Source: a virus. Taken from it: 64,000 nucleotides of DNA. This document shows positions 33,794-40,284 of this stretch, in pieces (position 1 is the first letter of the stretch; every line of letters starts with the position of its first letter). The position numbers were made by a program, and so were the translations under genes. The notes below the pieces were generated by a model, which ran no database searches, was not told the DNA's origin, and saw nothing but the letters and a program-made list of their open reading frames with translations. The stretch lies in IMG/VR virus record IMGVR_UViG_3300022561_000009. One strand, given 5' to 3'.

Positions 33794-33838
33794 TCTTAAA
33801 TCACTCTCCTACTATTATTTTCTCCTACTAGCGAACAC

Positions 33839-33875
33839 AAAAAAGGAACCTGGCCCATAGGAGGAAACCAGGTCC
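33839..33875 (-). terminator. rho-independent terminator upstream of HNH-terS
   Basis: GGACCTGG...CCAGGTTCC stem followed by UUUUUU on the minus strand. Confidence 0.7.
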
Positions 33876-34225
33876 ATATATAATCTGCTTGCTTATGGCA
33901 GAAACTTAGCTACCTTCTATAAGCTCACAAATAGCGCATCTAATACATTTATACTAAATGAGCTATTACTAAGCTCATACAGCTCCACAGAGTCTACACG
34001 TCGAATATAAGTAATATGTATAGCGCATCTACTCCCCATGAAGCAGTTTATCATTCTGCTGTGCGCTCCTCATGTTTGCGGTCCCTCCCCGTTTGTCACC
34101 TTCCGTTCTCGTCTTGCCTTCTTGATCCATTTAGATATCATTACACGCACCTCCTTCTCTATCATCTCTGCCGGCGAAGTTATCTCTATTAATAAGAGAG
34201 TGCCGTGCAAACAGATTTTATTGAC

Positions 34226-34240
34226 ATATGTCTTGACATC
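34226..34240 (+). promoter_or_regulatory. operator/-35 box copy 1 (ATATGTCTTGACATC)
   Basis: 15-mer identical to 34491-34505. Overlaps a TTGACA upstream of the RHH gene. Confidence 0.55.
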
Positions 34241-34275
34241 GTGATACCATTACACATAAAGGAGTTGAACTAATA

Positions 34276-34434
34276 ATGGCAGAAATAGACACCCGCGAGC
34301 GCATGACGTTGCGAATAACAGAGGACATCTGGCGACTAATCAAAATTGATCTAATGGACAAAAAGGAGCCATCAGCCAACGAGCTAATCACCAAGCTACT
34401 ATATAAGCATTACAACTTACCTCAGCCGGAATAG
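34276..34434 (+). CDS. ribbon-helix-helix regulator, 52 aa (first gene of the plus-strand block)
   Basis: Manual ORF MAEIDTRERMTLRITEDIWRLIKIDLMDKKEPSANELITKLLYKHYNLPQPE. RBS AAGGAG. Flanked by two copies of the same operator. Confidence 0.65.
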   Translation: MAEIDTRERMTLRITEDIWRLIKIDLMDKKEPSANELITKLLYKHYNLPQPE

Positions 34435-34445
34435 CTGGGGTTTTT
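34420..34445 (+). terminator. rho-independent terminator after the RHH gene
   Basis: CCUCAGC/GCUGGGG 7-bp stem followed by UUUUU. Confidence 0.6.
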
Positions 34446-34490
34446 CTATGCCCTAAATTGTGTGTGAAAATAGTACAATGAATTACTATA

Positions 34491-34526
34491 ATATGTCTTG
34501 ACATCAAGACATCATGGTAGTAGTAT
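34491..34526 (+). promoter_or_regulatory. promoter with palindromic operator (ATGTCTTGA-CA-TCAAGACAT)
   Basis: -35 TTGACA 34498-34503, 17-nt spacer, -10 TAGTAT 34521-34526. A perfect 9-bp inverted repeat spans the -35. Confidence 0.6.
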
Positions 34527-34564
34527 AAGTGACAAGAAGTAAAACATTTGAGGGGGAAAACAAA

Positions 34565-34843
34565 ATGACAAAGAGCGAAATGAAGCAAGAATACAACGAG
34601 CTCTGGGCATTATCCAACAACACAATGAACGATATCAGGGACACAGACACCTACACTAAAGACAATAAGTATTACGAATACATTGGGAGAAACGATCACA
34701 GCCTCTATTGTCTCGGAGGATCAGGAAGTTGGAGAATGAATAAACTCACCAAAACAGAACTAGCCAAAAAGATTATCCTGATAACTGAACAGCTCGGAAT
34801 ATTCAACACGATGCTCACTCAGCAATTAGCAAAAATAAACTAA
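34565..34843 (+). CDS. hypothetical protein
   Basis: 92 aa. ATG 34565 follows GAGGGGGA. Confidence 0.6.
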   Translation: MTKSEMKQEYNELWALSNNTMNDIRDTDTYTKDNKYYEYIGRNDHSLYCLGGSGSWRMNKLTKTELAKKIILITEQLGIFNTMLTQQLAKIN

Positions 34844-34887
34844 CTATCACAAGCGAGCTGGCGCATCCAGCGTAAGGAGGAAATAAA

Positions 34888-35052
34888 ATGGGTAAATGGA
34901 TAACAGGTGTTTATAAGAGTGAGCTACATTTTACCAGTGTTTATGTGGAGGATGGCCAAGATGAATTAGACGTATTATTTCCCGAAGGATATGAGGGAGA
35001 AATGTGGATATCTGATTTAAAAATAACCTCAGAACAACTAGACGAAGAATAA
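34888..35052 (+). CDS. hypothetical small protein, 54 aa
   Basis: Manual ORF MGKWITGVYKSELHFTSVYVEDGQDELDVLFPEGYEGEMWISDLKITSEQLDEE. RBS AAGGAGG. Confidence 0.55.
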   Translation: MGKWITGVYKSELHFTSVYVEDGQDELDVLFPEGYEGEMWISDLKITSEQLDEE

Positions 35053-35154
35053 TAGAATCCCGTTATCATTCTGAGAGCTTGTGCTCTCGTCCATACTTCC
35101 TAAAACTAGGGAGCGTGGACGAACGCAGAAACTAAATGAAAGAAGGCAAAACAC

Positions 35155-35322
35155 ATGAAAAACTTAATCTATATTCCTGGTTGGGGCCATTGCCAATTAA
35201 AAGAAACTATCAAGTCAATTCCAGTCAAGGCGCATTATTGCGGGACCGCAGAAGGCGAAGATGAGTCGAGCGAATACAGCATCTACGAAAAAGACAATAC
35301 ATTCTACTGCCTAGCTGAATAA
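35155..35322 (+). CDS. hypothetical small protein, 55 aa
   Basis: Manual ORF MKNLIYIPGWGHCQLKETIKSIPVKAHYCGTAEGEDESSEYSIYEKDNTFYCLAE. RBS GAAAGAAGG. Confidence 0.55.
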   Translation: MKNLIYIPGWGHCQLKETIKSIPVKAHYCGTAEGEDESSEYSIYEKDNTFYCLAE

Positions 35323-35329
35323 CATCCCT

Positions 35330-35382
35330 TCCCACCTGATGAGCTGGAAACAGCGAAACACGGTCAAAGCCGTGTCGTGGGA
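35330..35382 (+). ncRNA. hammerhead self-cleaving ribozyme (stem I open, type I topology)
   Basis: UCCCAC-CUGAUGA-GCUG(GAAA)CAGC-GAAA-CACGG(UCAAAG)CCGUG-UC/GUGGGA. Complete conserved core, G10.1-C11.1, A15.1-U16.1, GUC triplet. Predicted cleavage after C35376. Confidence 0.8.
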
Positions 35383-35410
35383 TAAACCACAAACGAAAGG
35401 AGCCAACACC

Positions 35411-35731
35411 ATGTCAAATGAATTCTACGACTACACCAACCAAGCTTGGGTAGTAAACGGTCACTACATCAAATGCGGTCATCCTGATTCAATGGATTGC
35501 GATTGCTACGGTAAACTACACGCCGGCGAAAAATGCACCGAGGAAACATACTTGGAAACACACCCAATTAAAGAACGCCCAGCAAAGGTATTTGAGATCC
35601 GCGGCGTTAACACTTGTAACTGCTTAGAACTTTCAGTAACAACCACAAGGAGAGAAGCAAACGAGATCGCAGAAGGCCGGCGGTCATGGGGTCATACTTC
35701 AATAACTATTGAGGAAGTCGAAAACGATTAA
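35411..35731 (+). CDS. hypothetical Cys/His-rich protein
   Basis: 106 aa. ATG 35411 follows AAAGGAG. The track ORF's N-terminal extension (from 35339) is the ribozyme, not coding. Confidence 0.6.
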   Translation: MSNEFYDYTNQAWVVNGHYIKCGHPDSMDCDCYGKLHAGEKCTEETYLETHPIKERPAKVFEIRGVNTCNCLELSVTTTRREANEIAEGRRSWGHTSITIEEVEND

Positions 35732-35749
35732 GAAAGGCGGCGCTACATT

Positions 35750-36217
35750 ATGAAATGGTTCAACGGCATTAACACGATTGAGGAATTAAAAAAAGCATTC
35801 CGCGCACTTGTAAAAAAGAATCATCCTGATGTTGGCGGCAATGAACAAGACATGAAGGACATTAACAACGAATACGAGATCATGTTTGCATACATCGAGA
35901 AGCACGGCGGCCAAAGTAAAAATCACAGTGTCAACGATGGATTCCGTGAGGCAATGGAAAAGGTAATAGACTTAGAAGGTTTAAACATTGAAATTTGTGG
36001 TAGTTGGATATGGTTAAGCGGTAACACCTACCCATACAAAGCCGTAATTCGTGAAGCCGGTTTTAGATGGGGAGCAAAGAAGAAAATGTGGTTCTGGCAT
36101 AGCGAAACCGAAACGAGCAACAACCGCAAAACAATGTCAATGGATAACATCCGATCCCTGCACGGGTCCGAAGTTATCAAGGGAACTGTAAGAACCGAAA
36201 AGAAGGCCATAGCATAA
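35750..36217 (+). CDS. J-domain (DnaJ-like) protein with GFRW-type C-terminal domain
   Basis: ELKKAFRALVKKNHPDVGGNEQDMKDINNEYEIMF carries the HPD motif. C-terminus ICGSWIWLSGNTYPYKAVIREAGFRWGAKKKMWFW. Confidence 0.8.
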   Translation: MKWFNGINTIEELKKAFRALVKKNHPDVGGNEQDMKDINNEYEIMFAYIEKHGGQSKNHSVNDGFREAMEKVIDLEGLNIEICGSWIWLSGNTYPYKAVIREAGFRWGAKKKMWFWHSETETSNNRKTMSMDNIRSLHGSEVIKGTVRTEKKAIA

Positions 36218-36218
36218 A

Positions 36219-36269
36219 GGGAGCTTATTCTCCCGTCAATGCACCTAATAAATTTAGATGTATTGACGG
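36219..36269 (+). ncRNA. conserved double stem-loop element, copy 1
   Basis: GGGAG(CUUAUU)CUCCC immediately followed by GUCAAUGCA...UGUAUUGAC long hairpin. Homologous to 36727-36784. Confidence 0.45.
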
Positions 36270-36302
36270 AGGAACAAACCACAAAGAAAGAAGGCACTTG
36301 AA

Positions 36303-36569
36303 ATGAACAAAGACACGAAGAACCTAAAACCTTTATACATCCCGCGCGAAGGTAACTGGAACTATTTCTTGGACCCTACATTTTTTAACACCGTCTTTTG
36401 TATCGCTAAACCTGGTACCGATTGCAAGTCTAGCATGTTCGGAAATGTTCAATACTTTACTAATTGGCTAAGACGCGAACTTGAAAAAGATCCAACCATT
36501 GACGGACGCTTTACCGCTTTATGTTTCGGATTGCTGGACGAAGCACAAGGAAAGGCGGCGAGAGTATGA
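36303..36569 (+). CDS. hypothetical protein
   Basis: 88 aa. RBS GAAAGAAGG. Confidence 0.6.
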   Translation: MNKDTKNLKPLYIPREGNWNYFLDPTFFNTVFCIAKPGTDCKSSMFGNVQYFTNWLRRELEKDPTIDGRFTALCFGLLDEAQGKAARV

Positions 36570-36721
36570 ACGACTACAATTACAAGGAACTAAACGCCCT
36601 CCTAGCTAAGGAGAAGCTAACACCGAAGGAGAACAAGAGAAAGCACTCACTATTAGATCAGTACGAAGAAGAACAAGCGACAAGGGATTACAAGTCATGG
36701 TGCAACAATCAGCCAATTTAA
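36566..36721 (+). CDS. hypothetical small protein, 51 aa
   Basis: ATG 36566 after AAGGAAAGG. Overlaps the upstream stop (ATGA). MNDYNYKELNALLAKEKLTPKENKRKH... Confidence 0.5.
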   Translation: MNDYNYKELNALLAKEKLTPKENKRKHSLLDQYEEEQATRDYKSWCNNQPI

Positions 36722-36726
36722 ACAGT

Positions 36727-36784
36727 GGGGATTTTTCCCCCGTCAATACGCCAACCACACAAACCCAGGCGGGCGCATTGACGG
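36727..36784 (+). ncRNA. conserved double stem-loop element, copy 2
   Basis: GGGGA(UUUU)UCCCC followed by CCGUCAAUACGCC...GGCGCAUUGACGG. Shares CCGUCAAU/AUUGACGGA with copy 1 while the distal stem differs. Confidence 0.45.
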
Positions 36785-36817
36785 AAGAGAAAGCCGAAGG
36801 AAAGAAGGAAAATTATT

Positions 36818-37315
36818 ATGAACAAAGCCGAAAACCTAAACGTACTGAAAACCCTGGAAACATTCCGCGTTAAACTTGCAACCGGAGCAATGTCAGGGGA
36901 TGCAGAATGGGCCGTAAGAATCTGCCAGGCACATATAGCAGCGGAACATTTTAACAGCCGCTCCGATTGGACCGAGCTCCTAAGAGAAGCGGCGGAACCG
37001 GTAAAGGAAATCAAACCCATTAACCCAGCCGTGAAAACCTATGAGCAATGGAGCGAAAGCCGGCAGGACCTTTCAAAGTTTTTACAAATTGGGGACCTAG
37101 TTGACGAAGAAATAGCAGAGTATTTTATAAACGTATTACCGCCCGCGTGTATGTCCGGCGGAATCGTACAAATTGGTGAACCTAGTGACCATGTAGAAGG
37201 CCACGCAACTTATGAAACACTTAAGCGAACGTCTGACGGTTGGCAGTATGCCGGAACTTGTCACAGAGGACAAACGGAACACAAAGCAGGGGAAACAATC
37301 ACCTGGAACAGCTAG
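36818..37315 (+). CDS. hypothetical protein
   Basis: 165 aa. RBS GGAAAGAAGG. Ends in TAG followed by the conserved ACCAAGCAAUGGAAUCA motif. Confidence 0.65.
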   Translation: MNKAENLNVLKTLETFRVKLATGAMSGDAEWAVRICQAHIAAEHFNSRSDWTELLREAAEPVKEIKPINPAVKTYEQWSESRQDLSKFLQIGDLVDEEIAEYFINVLPPACMSGGIVQIGEPSDHVEGHATYETLKRTSDGWQYAGTCHRGQTEHKAGETITWNS

Positions 37316-37377
37316 CACCAAGCAATGGAATCACAAAGCGAGCCGGCGCAATCCGGCGAAGGAAAGAAGGTAACAAC

Positions 37378-37845
37378 ATGACAAGAAAATTTTCACCTGC
37401 TCAAATGAAATACATGAAAGCGAAGGCCATGCACGAAACTATTGTAAACCTCGAAAAGCAATGTAAAGAAAAGGTATTAGAGCAAAACGACTTCTGGAGT
37501 GTACCTGTTGAAGGCATCGACGAGAAAACAGAACGAATTTTAAAACCTGGTTACGACTTCACAATGTCAGACAAAGATTTTATAGAGTATTGCAAACTAG
37601 CCCGCGAACAATACCAAGCCATAGGAATCGAAACGCCAGACTATAATACTAGCCCTACTTATAAATCAAGGCCGGCACTAAAGAAGGCCGAAAGAGAATT
37701 AATCGAATGGGGTTGGTTAATACTTCGATCACATCCTAAGTATTCAGCAGTAGCCGCAGGCATCGAAAACCTGAAAAAAGAAATAACCCATAATACAGAA
37801 ATACGCGAAAAGGTAATTGACTTAACTTTAAGCCTAGTAGCATAG
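37378..37845 (+). CDS. hypothetical protein
   Basis: 155 aa. ATG 37378 after GGAAAGAAGG. Ends in TAG followed by the conserved motif. Confidence 0.65.
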   Translation: MTRKFSPAQMKYMKAKAMHETIVNLEKQCKEKVLEQNDFWSVPVEGIDEKTERILKPGYDFTMSDKDFIEYCKLAREQYQAIGIETPDYNTSPTYKSRPALKKAERELIEWGWLILRSHPKYSAVAAGIENLKKEITHNTEIREKVIDLTLSLVA

Positions 37846-37948
37846 GACCAAGCAAGGGAATGACTAAAAGCAGCTTATTCCCCTGCTTTGGGATCCTGCA
37901 TCATAACAGGGTAACAAAGCGGAAGAATAAACGAAAGAAGGCCAACAC

Positions 37949-38872
37949 ATGAACATTATCAACGAGCAACTAGCCAGACGCAGTAAAGAAAATATGAGCT
38001 TTTCAGACTACACACCAGGCAGTGCAACCGCAGAGTACAATCAACTAATATCTGATGCTACCGAAAAGATTGAGGAGGCGAAGGAAAGAGTATCTGACGA
38101 AGGCAAGCAACGACTAGACACCCTGTTAGCACGTTACTCAGCTAATTATGCTAGCTGGATAAACAGACAGAACAAAAACGGCGCCGGCCATGTCAGCGTA
38201 ATGCTTGCAGGACCTAGTAACTACAACATGAGAGCCCACGAAAAATATATGAGCAGGGAATCTAAACTGTGGGCCGAGTATGACGAATTGAAAAATTATA
38301 TTGAGAATGGAATCTACAGTATAATAAATGGTGACAGAATCATAAAATCAAATGATGTTAACGCCATCGACAAACTGAAGGAGAAACTAGCCAAGCTGGA
38401 AGAAATGCAGAACCTAATGAAATCAGCTAACAAAATAGTGAAGAACAAAAAGTTTACGGATGATGTAAAAATTGAGCTACTTGTAGAAATGGGAATAAGC
38501 GAAGCGAAAGCAGCCAGCCTATTACTTCCCAGTCATTGTTGCGCATGTGGTTTCGCGTCCTACGAGCTAACAAACAACAACGCCACAATCCGAAACACCA
38601 AGCAACGTATTGCGCACCTTGAACGGCTTGCAGCGCAGGAAACGAAAGAAATCATCATTGAAACGGAATCAGATGAAAGCAACGGAATCAGGATCGTTGA
38701 CAATGTAGCGGCGTGTCGCTTACAAATATTCTTCAACGGCAAACCTTCCGCAGAAACCAGGACCGCATTAAAGAAAAATGGATTCAGATGGACACCATCA
38801 ATAAGCGCATGGCAATCATACCGGAGCGATCACGCAAACACCGCAGCGCAGGAAATAGTTAACGCCATGTAG
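37949..38872 (+). CDS. DUF3560-like protein with GFRW-type C-terminal domain
   Basis: HVSVMLAGPSNYNMRAHEKYMSRE and C-terminal RLQIFFNGKPSAETRTALKKNGFRWTPSISAWQ match my recollection of DUF3560 proteins of plasmids, ICEs and phages. Confidence 0.6.
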   Translation: MNIINEQLARRSKENMSFSDYTPGSATAEYNQLISDATEKIEEAKERVSDEGKQRLDTLLARYSANYASWINRQNKNGAGHVSVMLAGPSNYNMRAHEKYMSRESKLWAEYDELKNYIENGIYSIINGDRIIKSNDVNAIDKLKEKLAKLEEMQNLMKSANKIVKNKKFTDDVKIELLVEMGISEAKAASLLLPSHCCACGFASYELTNNNATIRNTKQRIAHLERLAAQETKEIIIETESDESNGIRIVDNVAACRLQIFFNGKPSAETRTALKKNGFRWTPSISAWQSYRSDHANTAAQEIVNAM

Positions 38873-39008
38873 AACCGAGCGGTGGAATCAGACCGACGCG
38901 CAAAAATATTAGCGGGGGAATCAATAAAGTATTTCCCCACTTCTGCGCCTAAACAAAAAAAGATTAGACGTACAAGTGAGGGAATATCATTAAGGAGGAA
39001 TCAGTGGA

Positions 39009-39899
39009 ATGACAGAAAATGAATTAATGCCTATTGAACTTTCGATCATGCCAACGAGTAAAGTCGTTGAATACTTCTTAGGCCAACAATCAGAAGGAAC
39101 CGCCAGGACATATGGCAGTGCAATTCGTGGGTTTGTCGCTTGGTCATGTAATCAGGACTACAGAACAATTACACCGTTTCAAGCAATGGATTTCAACGAG
39201 CATCTAAAAGCTACCTGTTCGCCAGCCACGGTTCAGCGTCAAATTGCAACACTCAAGATGTTTTTCAAGTTTGCACTCGAATGTGGACTGATTACAAAAA
39301 ACCCATTCGCATTAATTAAGCAACACGGAGCAGTTAGCACAGCAGGTCAAAAGTTTCTAACAGTCAAAGAAATTGACTTCTTGCTTGCAGAACTTGAGAA
39401 AGCTGGACCACGCCAGCACATTCTAGGTCTTATACTCGTTTATACAGGCATGAGAATCAGTGAAGTGGCTGGACTCTCATGGTGTGACGTAACCGAGATG
39501 CCAGGAGGCGAAATATATCTAAATATTTTACGCAAAGGTGATAAACGCCAAATGCTCTATCTTCGACCTGATGTAACAAAGGTCCTTATGGAGTACATGG
39601 ACCGGCCATTAAACCAATTAGACCACAGTCCGTTGTTCCTGAACCCGCAGGGGAATCGCGTGAGTGACGTGAGCTTGCGTACCTGGATTATAAAGGCCGG
39701 AAAAAAGGCAGGAATAAAAAAGCATTGCAACCCCCATATTTTACGGCATACGTTTGTTTCTCACTGTATTGCCAATAATGCTGATATGAGAGCAGTACAA
39801 CAGTATGTCGGACACGCGCAAATCACAACCACACAAATCTATTGGCACAGTGATAATGACAAGGTTTCCGACTTCATGCCGAATAAGATAAGTGAGTAG
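39009..39899 (+). CDS. tyrosine recombinase, XerC/D-like (second recombinase of the element)
   Basis: N-terminal SAM-like core-binding domain. Catalytic pattern GMRISE ... HILRHTF ... GHAQITTTQIYWH (R, H-x-x-R, H, Y). Confidence 0.85.
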   Translation: MTENELMPIELSIMPTSKVVEYFLGQQSEGTARTYGSAIRGFVAWSCNQDYRTITPFQAMDFNEHLKATCSPATVQRQIATLKMFFKFALECGLITKNPFALIKQHGAVSTAGQKFLTVKEIDFLLAELEKAGPRQHILGLILVYTGMRISEVAGLSWCDVTEMPGGEIYLNILRKGDKRQMLYLRPDVTKVLMEYMDRPLNQLDHSPLFLNPQGNRVSDVSLRTWIIKAGKKAGIKKHCNPHILRHTFVSHCIANNADMRAVQQYVGHAQITTTQIYWHSDNDKVSDFMPNKISE

Positions 39900-39904
39900 A
39901 TATT

Positions 39905-39934
39905 AAAAAGGCTTCCCATTTCGGAAGCCTTTTT
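39905..39934 (+). terminator. bidirectional rho-independent terminator ending the plus-strand operon
   Basis: AAAAA-GGCTTCC(catttc)GGAAGCC-TTTTT. Confidence 0.8.
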
Positions 39935-39961
39935 GTTTATCTTACCCCCAGGAAAAATAGC

Positions 39962-40120
39962 TTATTGTGGAATATAAACGCTAGCGTTTTCCTGCATCAT
40001 TCTTTCAAATATCTTAAAGCTAGAATCTTCATCGTACACATCAAATTCACTGCATAACTCTTTTTGTGGCTTATCTTTTTTAGGACAAGTCTTTACATGA
40101 ACACAGTTTTTACACAACAC
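39962..40120 (-). CDS. Cys-rich small protein, 52 aa
   Basis: Manual GTG-start ORF (M)LCKNCVHVKTCPKKDKPQKELCSEFDVYDEDSSFKIFERMMQENASVYIPQ. RBS AGGGGGA. Confidence 0.4.
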   Translation of the reverse strand: MLCKNCVHVKTCPKKDKPQKELCSEFDVYDEDSSFKIFERMMQENASVYIPQ

Positions 40121-40147
40121 ATACAATTCCCCCTAAAATTAAATAAG

Positions 40148-40195
40148 AAAAAGGACCCGCAGTGAACCGTTTATTAGACGGGGGCAGGTCCTTTT
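40148..40195 (-). terminator. bidirectional hairpin terminator after the ArpU-like gene
   Basis: AAAAA-GGACCCGC...GCAGGTCC-TTTT. Confidence 0.6.
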
Positions 40196-40284
40196 GTTGT
40201 TAAATACTTACATCTTATATGATATCATCTTGATTTCACTATAACCATATGCTTATTAGGTAAAAAACTGGTAATCAATCAATA

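Follow-up and report, generated by a model that had tools for sequence, protein, structure and literature searches.

The 64,000-nt stretch of viral DNA analyzed here (IMG/VR record IMGVR_UViG_3300022561_000009; hereafter the window) comes from an uncultivated Bacillota phage of about 65 kb known from metagenomic sequence, and its 65.3 kb JGI metagenome contig (3300010331, Ga0123336_10000178) is essentially the whole genome. On the plus strand, among the small genes of a polycistronic operon, lie two copies of a short structured element, each occupying the spacer that runs from the stop codon of one gene to the Shine-Dalgarno sequence (SD) and ATG of the next. From its sequence and that of its relatives, the element is predicted with good support to be a compact H-type pseudoknot of about 26-35 nt that would act in cis in a polycistronic phage mRNA. 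The hairpins of the window belong to a small, uncatalogued family of about 35-base RNA pseudoknots in uncultivated phages.

Copy 1 (34846-34871, plus strand) matches the covariance model described below with 39.9 bits (E 2e-6), and its two stems, S1 and S2, are assigned by homology to the family alignment. It comprises a 5' tail AUCACAA (34846-34852), the S1 5' strand GCG (34853-34855), loop 1, a single A (34856), the S2 5' strand GCUGG (34857-34861), the S1 3' strand CGC (34862-34864), loop 3 AU (34865-34866) and the S2 3' strand CCAGC (34867-34871). The preceding gene stops at 34841-34843, and the SD AAGGAGG (34874-34880) begins 3 nt past the pseudoknot, followed by the ATG (34888-34890) of a 54-amino-acid (aa) open reading frame (ORF; 34888-35052, plus strand); with its SD the copy reads AUCACAA-GCG-A-GCUGG-CGC-AU-CCAGC-GU-AAGGAGG (34846-34880). 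Copy 2 (37330-37357, plus strand; 41.7 bits, E 8e-7) is read from the same alignment as a 5' tail AUCACAAA (37330-37337), the S1 5' strand GCG (37338-37340), loop 1 A (37341), the S2 5' strand GCCGG (37342-37346), the S1 3' strand CGC (37347-37349), loop 3 AAU (37350-37352) and the S2 3' strand CCGGC (37353-37357). Here the preceding stop codon is at 37313-37315, and an extended purine-rich SD AAGGAAAGAAGG (37359-37370) leads to the ATG (37378-37380) of a 155-aa ORF (37378-37845, plus strand), the copy with its SD being AUCACAAA-GCG-A-GCCGG-CGC-AAU-CCGGC-G-AAGGAAAGAAGG (37330-37370).

An earlier note on this DNA had described two hairpin copies at 34846-34878 and 37330-37365 whose stems differ by a double change that keeps the pairing. 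Both hairpins are present there, and copy 1 indeed has U-A as its third stem pair where copy 2 has C-G. Their common pattern of 16-17 nt occurs exactly twice in the window and in none of 100 shuffles, and a covariance-model search of the 64 kb returns only these two copies. The hairpin alone is thermodynamically unremarkable (z = +0.6 and -1.1 against shuffles). A single double change between two paralogous copies is one event, and thus the case for a selected RNA structure must rest on the wider family.

The distribution of relatives was revealed by scans of increasing tolerance. An exact-pattern scan of IMG/VR identified a 67.7 kb phage contig, L001 (loci outside the window are cited by such handles), in which four elements of this design are found inside 3.2 kb, every one immediately 5' of an SD. 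A looser scan of IMG/VR, which used sequence anchors only (CACAAGS..AGC, GC and AAGGAGG) and did not demand pairing, yielded 55 loci; about 20 of these are clear relatives that fold into the hairpin, and the remainder look like chance matches with no fold. A covariance model built on the hairpin and its flanks, which encodes S2 but not S1, recovered the relatives of the anchor scan together with a few more, and further members were present in loci fetched through homologues of a 307-aa protein encoded in the window. The family so assembled comprises 26 distinct sequences from about 17 phage contigs; the covariance-model search that the earlier note had proposed therefore does find homologues, and the stem is kept in them. 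Every instance is on the sense strand; 25 stand directly upstream of an ORF start with an SD, L157b being the exception.

Outside these phages the picture is one of absence. Anchored scans of 185,579 species genomes and of the JGI metagenomes gave almost only chance or coding matches, such as a groEL-like HKQSREISGKEEIA stretch. The species genomes yielded no true members, and those of the metagenomes were contigs already in IMG/VR. The chance and coding matches to the anchors fail to fold into the hairpin and serve as a negative control. Because the genome and metagenome scans return only contigs already seen, the family is rare, and within IMG/VR about 7 of 79 related loci carry the element. 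Megablast of 34000-38000 against GenBank phages produced no match, and an IMG/VR search with the gene behind copy 2 as the single protein query produced no relatives.

The order of the parts (S1-5', A, S2-5', S1-3', loop 3, S2-3') is that of a classical H-type pseudoknot, in which the 3-6 nt directly 5' of the hairpin stem pair with the 5' half of its apparent loop. S1 has 3-6 bp; S2 is a G+C-rich helix of 5-7 bp that always opens with G-C, C-G; loop 1 is a single A (A or AA); and loop 3 is 2-5 nt long and A/U-rich. The AAGCGA flank and the CGCA(A)U loop had been singled out as conserved in the earlier note, and so they are, but they are not independent pieces, since the GCG of the one and the CGC of the other pair together. 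Across the family S1 is formed by GGUC:GACC, GGUC:GGCC, GGCU:AGCC, GGCC:GGCC, GCCC:GGGC and AAGCCC:GGGCUU, and further by ACCG:CGGU (in two different stem backgrounds), GCCG:CGGC, AGCC:GGCU and AAGGC:GCCUU.

Supporting this structure, a register-free permutation test showed that a member's flank pairs with its own loop over 3.72 bp, against 2.83 bp with the loops of other members, a value reached in none of 20000 permutations. Pairs were then counted in an alignment of the 26 sequences, which had been registered by hand and N-padded so that the aligner kept them gapless. Over the whole structure 95.9% of the cells are paired. Shuffles pair 80.0 +/- 1.4, none of the 500 attaining the observed figure, and slid partners give no more than 46%. 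More specifically, S1 shows double changes at all four of its pairs with 92.3% of cells paired, and S2 at three of seven with 98.6%, a pattern that bears out the selection on RNA structure proposed from the two window copies. The four members found last came from the model of S2 only, and every one of them has S1 complementarity (AAGCCC:GGGCUU, ACCG:CGGU, GCCG:CGGC and GCG:CGC). Two helices are therefore found in pseudoknot order, and both covary. The fold is also sterically feasible: loop 1 crosses the 5-7 bp of S2 with 1-2 nt, and in most members loop 3 has 2-5 nt with which to span an S1 of 3-4 bp. In L157a, L169 and L003 the potential S1 pairs exceed the reach of loop 3, so that only part of S1 can form. 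Invariant or nearly so are the CAA of the single-stranded (C)CACAA tail 5' of S1, the A of loop 1 and the G-C and C-G that open S2, and a G usually follows S2. The window shows no enrichment of the string YCACAAR (43 observed, 40.6 expected); CACAA recurs before four SD sequences in the window operon.

The placement of the element is as regular as its structure. S1 begins 6-13 nt past the upstream stop codon, typically about 8 nt (21 nt in copy 2), and in nearly all instances the SD core lies 1-4 nt and the start codon 14-20 nt past S2. The whole spacer from stop codon to SD measures 30-45 nt and holds two short helices only. A ribosome that holds a stop codon in its A site occupies roughly the 7-9 nt that follow, and a 30S subunit at the next start codon reaches back to about -15 to -18. 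With these standard footprints the knot would fit almost exactly between terminating and initiating ribosomes, and neither would need to unwind it. The element travels with the gene downstream: an 'MQVV' ribbon-helix-helix (RHH) gene retains it behind differing upstream genes, and the orthologous copies before this gene differ by compensatory swaps, for example GCCGGG/CCCGGC versus GCCCGG/CCGGGC. The genes downstream of different copies (two in the window operon, four in L001) are unrelated to one another.

These observations bear on the simplest alternative, that the element has no function of its own and is a short repeat of the 5' untranslated region (UTR) spread by recombination among mosaic phages, the hairpin being incidental and the complementarity of flank and loop a coincidence. 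Such an origin would suit the unremarkable folding energy of the hairpin and the confinement of the family to a narrow phage group, with the same contigs in the metagenome scan and none in the species genomes. We nevertheless regard it as very unlikely, since at least 10 different S1 sequence pairs and several S2 variants keep their pairing where shuffled and slid controls fail, and since orthologous copies before the same gene differ by compensatory swaps.

Both copies lie within a predicted transcription unit of about 5.4 kb (34498-39935, plus strand), delimited from promoter and terminator consensus scans and the ORF layout. It opens with a promoter-like site, TTGACA-17-TAGTAT (34498-34526, plus strand), and closes with a terminator-like hairpin (39904-39935, plus strand). 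Between 34530 and 39900 the consensus scan of the plus strand found no strong promoter-like site and no terminator with a clear stem-plus-T-run; the only matches inside the unit are weak, namely a 9/12 promoter-like site at 34565-34592, about 40 nt past the promoter, and a 6-pair terminator-like hairpin at 39052-39069 within the integrase ORF. With no convincing internal promoter or terminator, both copies appear to be internal to one polycistronic unit.

The unit belongs to a plus-strand module (34.2-39.9 kb) flanked by minus-strand packaging genes (terminase/HNH) and minus-strand regulatory genes. An RHH gene comes first, a run of small genes mostly without annotated function follows, and a tyrosine recombinase gene (39009-39899) comes last; one of the genes has a DnaJ domain, and the homologues of the 307-aa gene carry DUF3560. 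The homologues of this protein are found in Bacillota (Candidatus Desulfosporosinus infrequens, Hydrogenispora ethanolica and Clostridia metagenome-assembled genomes) and on many contigs of 60-68 kb. The layout of the module recurs in related 60-68 kb phage contigs with highly mosaic gene content (ArdC-like, PAPS reductase, resolvase and ParM-like genes in relatives). At its head, promoter-like sites at 34221-34250 and 34498-34526 share the repeat AUAUGUCUUGACAUC, and the first of them precedes the 52-aa RHH gene (34276-34434), which is followed by a terminator-like hairpin (34419-34441); judged from its sequence, this arrangement looks like an autoregulated switch. Elsewhere in the genome, a 73-aa phage protein (41481-41702, minus strand) has a match to PF03118, the C-terminal domain of the RNA polymerase alpha subunit, and sister phages conserve this protein. 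One sister phage also has a match above gathering score to the int-alpA RNA (RF02996; L154 10201-10267, minus strand).

A module headed by an RHH gene and closed by a tyrosine recombinase gene, with mosaic content between the two, raises the question of whether the element works as DNA, either as an inverted repeat for a DNA-binding protein such as the RHH repressor or as a recombinase site comparable to the attC site of integrons. This is most improbable. Five G-U cells of the family alignment would be A-C mismatches on the opposite strand, and these G-U pairs, taken with the strict sense-strand position before an SD, argue for RNA rather than DNA. The helix between flank and loop, like the G-U pairs, makes sense only as a sense single strand. 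Moreover, the stem sequence varies freely with pairing kept, unlike that of a protein operator, the orientation is constant and the distance to the SD fixed, and the element is far shorter than attC sites.

Comparison with catalogued RNAs placed the element in no known class. Rfam reported no family at gathering score on the window element or on 18 family loci, and no match to the element at E <= 10 in a scan of the operon (33800-40200, 6.4 kb) or in a lax-filter 76-nt scan of copy 1. Twister-sister (RF02681), whose loops the earlier note had been reminded of, is among the models without a covariance-model match at E <= 10 in both of these scans. Its architecture comprises P1-P2, an internal loop with the cleavage site and a three- or four-way junction, and the element, with two short helices in a spacer of 30-45 nt, is too small for such a multi-stem arrangement; this likeness finds no support. 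Hammerhead, twister, pistol, hatchet and hepatitis delta virus (HDV)-like ribozymes likewise have no Rfam match on the element, in searches that do detect ribozymes in the operon and sister loci, and an HDV-like fold has no room for P3 or P4 because S1-3' directly follows S2-5'.

The small pseudoknot riboswitches (preQ1-I, preQ1-II, SAM-II, guanidine-III and fluoride) gave no Rfam match, and the SD lies 1-4 nt outside S2 and in neither helix. A ligand-sensing riboswitch that controls translation in the manner of preQ1-I or guanidine-III is therefore scarcely probable, even though the size of the element, its H-type fold beside the SD and its invariant unpaired nucleotides resemble the smallest riboswitches; several copies per operon before unrelated small phage genes offer no metabolic theme. 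Other kinds of signal were also rejected. An intrinsic terminator would have a U run, but the hairpin is followed by GUAAGGAGG or GAAGGAAAG, and the terminator scan reports none at either copy. For a recoding signal the spacing of 6-13 nt from the stop codon fits, but there is no conserved slippery heptamer, and a ribosome reading through the stop of copy 1 would run into a further one about 15 codons on, in a frame other than that of the next gene, for which an SD and ATG of its own are present. Mimicry of the 16S rRNA 3' end was suggested by the commonest variant ACAAGGUCAGCCGGGGACCU, which resembles ...ACAAGGUAGCCGUA..., presumably the 16S rRNA region leading into helix 45; it was ruled out because the freely covarying S1 (GCG, GCCC, ACCG, GCCG) destroys the resemblance.

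The neighborhood of the element is rich in other structured spacers. About 460 nt downstream of copy 1, in the same operon, the Rfam scan together with inspection of the core by eye identified a complete type I hammerhead (35330-35384, plus strand) in the spacer between the ORF at 35155-35322 and the ATG at 35411. Its sequence is UCCCAC-CUGAUGA-GCUG-GAAA-CAGC-GAA-ACACGG-UCAAAG-CCGUGU-C^GUGGGA, in which all core nucleotides are canonical, and it scores 23.3 bits against HH9, below the Rfam gathering threshold. The 3' product of its cleavage could form a 5'-terminal GUGG/CCAC hairpin directly before the SD. Above the gathering threshold, homologous modules contain a pistol (L154 6917-6980) and a type III hammerhead (L158 5860-5914), both in spacers before an SD, and two Twister-P5 matches (L156 8370-8423 and L157 3712-3767), both overlapping called genes. 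The module is, by these matches, a hot spot for predicted self-cleaving ribozymes. A regular-expression search for hammerheads in the pseudoknot-bearing loci found none besides that of the window. Hammerhead-like spacers with non-canonical cores occur at L150 5274-5363, where CCGAUGAG stands in place of the expected CUGAUGAG, and at L156 6611-6698, where a U-A pair occupies the position of the conserved A15.1-U16.1; these may be relics that have lost activity, or variants that are tolerated.

Bacterial self-cleaving ribozymes are known to be concentrated in spacers between small genes of phage modules, and new classes have come to light there (PMC5737381). The instinct of the earlier note that the element is ribozyme-like fits this neighborhood, with a hammerhead in the operon and pistol, twister and hammerhead in homologous modules, but the element itself matches no ribozyme model. 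It could nonetheless be a very small self-cleaving ribozyme of a new class, or else a signal dedicated to cleavage, cutting in or near the CACAA tail and interchangeable with hammerhead, twister and pistol. It occupies the same kind of spacer as the known ribozymes of this module family, combines a pseudoknot with invariant unpaired nucleotides and is absent from Rfam, and pistol, hatchet and twister-sister were themselves discovered by searching near ribozyme-associated genes (PMC5737381). We consider this possibility unlikely: at about 30 nt and with two short helices the element is smaller and simpler than any known self-cleaving class, it has no similarity to any ribozyme model, and many motifs near ribozyme-associated genes failed to cleave when assayed (PMC5737381).

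A second spacer element that recurs is a stem-loop of irregular pairing, about 20 bp long, after which come GAAYG and an SD of the GAAAGAAGG type. It was found in the window (35085-35150 and 37846-37948) and at L001 1311-1385, L018 2400-2490 (minus strand), L150 7860-7945, L153 7916-7997 and L157 3990-4086 and 7919-8007. Over these eight copies RNAalifold predicts a stem with double changes at 15 of 20 pairs, and no Rfam family matches it; as large as an RNase III substrate, it may mark a site of RNase III-type processing or be some other RNA. In L018 the orthologue of the gene behind copy 2 has such a long covarying stem in front of it instead of the pseudoknot, which implies that structured elements are interchangeable before the same gene. 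Further spacers were noted in passing. Two of them, at L154 5095-5183 and L156 6909-7003, belong to different phages; in both, G+C-rich hairpins precede the ending '...CUUCCGCUCAACC...'. They have no Rfam match at E <= 0.5 and may represent another conserved spacer RNA. The orthologous spacers at 36218-36302 of the window and L150 6015-6096 contain two hairpins (GGGAG-CUUAUU-CUCCC, then CCGUCAAUGCA...UGUAUUGACGG) before ACCACAAAGAAAGAAGG and the ATG. An ACCACAA tail without a pseudoknot is present in the 36218-36302 spacer and after the hammerhead (35386-35392).

The occurrence of other structured elements, ribozymes and stems of about 20 bp, in the equivalent pre-SD spacers of sister phages suggests an operon built for gene-by-gene processing and expression. 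Our preferred interpretation, put forward tentatively, is that the pseudoknot is an intercistronic mRNA element that guards and insulates the downstream ribosome-binding site and forms a 5' roadblock to decay of the RNase J1 type. It would be a form of intercistronic 'punctuation', marking the 5' boundary of the downstream cistron in an operon built for cutting and gene-by-gene expression. During termination on the upstream gene the knot would stay folded because it lies just outside the entry channel of the terminating ribosome, and it would also lie at the point where mRNA emerges from the exit channel of a 30S subunit on the downstream SD. There it could keep the SD from pairing with upstream sequence. 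Once the long transcript had been cut upstream, the knot would block 5'-to-3' exonucleolytic decay, by RNase J1 in Bacillota, and the downstream ribosome-binding site and its cistron would survive as a stable, translatable unit.

The literature on mRNA decay supplies the background to this reading. In Bacillus subtilis 5' structures are roadblocks to RNase J1. In Bacillota this enzyme degrades RNA from the 5' end, the 5'-OH fragments left by ribozymes included, and bound ribosomes stop it as well; what becomes of an ORF is decided by whether its ribosome-binding site is reached (PMC3997798). RNase Y cleaves preferentially in A/U-rich RNA that is itself unstructured and has a structured region downstream (PMC11780869), and the A-rich tail followed by the knot would resemble such an arrangement.

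Alternatively, the pseudoknot and its CACAA tail may form a translational operator, bound by a trans-acting RNA-binding protein of phage or host that blocks or entraps the 30S subunit, so that unrelated genes are switched together. Precedents include the gp43 and RegA operators and the gene 32 pseudoknot of phage T4, and the S15 pseudoknot of E. coli rpsO. The persistence of single-stranded C8, A9 and A10, the loop-1 A and the G after S2 while the helices vary is what such binding might leave behind, as are the fixed distance to the SD and the presence of several copies per operon before unrelated genes (two in the window, four within 3.2 kb in L001). Among the module proteins, which are mostly without assigned function, none was recognised as a candidate RNA-binding protein, and the same gene can bear a different structured element, which is odd for a dedicated operator. 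On balance we hold the operator to be possible but doubtful.

Several points weigh against the roadblock and insulator interpretation, and some of them against the pseudoknot itself. Every step of the mechanism is one that we infer. A passive roadblock or insulator does not need the conserved (C)CACAA tail, the invariant A of loop 1 or the G-C and C-G with which S2 opens, and invariant unpaired bases hint at recognition by a factor or at chemistry. The conserved CACAA tail is thus left unexplained by a passive roadblock, which keeps the operator and the self-cleaving or processing RNA alive as rivals. The element is dispensable, most sister modules being without it. In the window itself S1 is GCG:CGC, only 3 bp long and identical in both copies, with a loop 3 of 2-3 nt, and the pseudoknot predicted there rests on homology to the family. 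The alignment used for pair counts was registered by hand, which leans towards the structure, and the family is phylogenetically narrow, so that some of the double changes may be inherited rather than independent.

If structure and placement hold, the element would represent an RNA family not yet catalogued, one marking the boundaries of genes in a type of operon where self-cleaving ribozymes do likewise. Structures that are not ribozymes appear to replace ribozymes before orthologous genes, and this may offer a concrete system for asking what hammerhead, twister and pistol are for, whether per-gene processing, stabilisation or translation of long early transcripts. The roadblock and insulator interpretation, if true, would also provide a compact natural 'insulator' part, pseudoknot plus SD, comparable to engineered ribozyme or hairpin insulators; if instead the element cleaves, it would be the smallest self-cleaving class known.

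Among known systems, the gene 32 leader of phages T2, T4 and T6 offers the first comparison. There an autoregulatory pseudoknot, tens of nucleotides upstream of the SD of a single gene, nucleates the cooperative binding of gp32. Like it, the element is a compact H-type knot within the leader of a phage mRNA; its loop 1 of 1 nt crosses S2, and by our reading it acts in cis on downstream translation. Unlike it, the knot of the present family abuts the SD and occurs several times per operon before unrelated genes, and the two share no sequence similarity. The intercistronic processing hairpins of the T7 and SP82 early operons are cut by RNase III, whose sites are helices of about 20 bp.

In the repZ gene of plasmid ColIb-P9 (IncI-alpha), a pseudoknot forms directly upstream of the ribosome-binding site and is linked to translation of the gene (Asano and Mizobuchi 1998, as cited in PMC8383071). 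According to the outline given there, this knot joins a distant stem-loop to sequence beside the ribosome-binding site, translation of a leader peptide opens an inhibitory hairpin, and an antisense RNA blocks the process (PMC8383071). As far as that outline goes, the two systems agree in having a knot directly 5' of the ribosome-binding site and an upstream reading frame that ends close by; they differ in that the present knot is local and self-contained and its SD is not visibly sequestered.

The 5' stabilisers, or 'roadblocks', of Bacillus (PMC3997798) are, like the T7 and SP82 hairpins, structured elements that settle which parts of a long transcript persist and get translated, the role that the knot would have by our reading. 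As with the knot, such structures separate cistrons or head a cistron, with a strong purine-rich SD next to them. In contrast, these stabilisers are simple 5'-terminal hairpins or a ribosome-bound SD, whereas here a pseudoknot is combined with a conserved single-stranded tail. To our knowledge, a conserved small pseudoknot with such a tail has not been described before as a stabiliser or processing element.

Finally, the ribozymes of phage gene arrays (hammerhead, twister, twister-sister, pistol and hatchet; PMC5737381) occupy the same short spacers between small genes of phage modules. Unlike them, the element lacks a multi-stem core and matches no model of these classes. Pistol also joins a hairpin to a pseudoknot, but its loop pairs downstream, whereas the loop of the present family pairs with its 5' flank. 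There is a modest chance that something categorically new is present. What is new is a covariation-supported pseudoknot family outside Rfam, while its kind, a structured intercistronic or 5'-UTR element beside a ribosome-binding site, is one already known.

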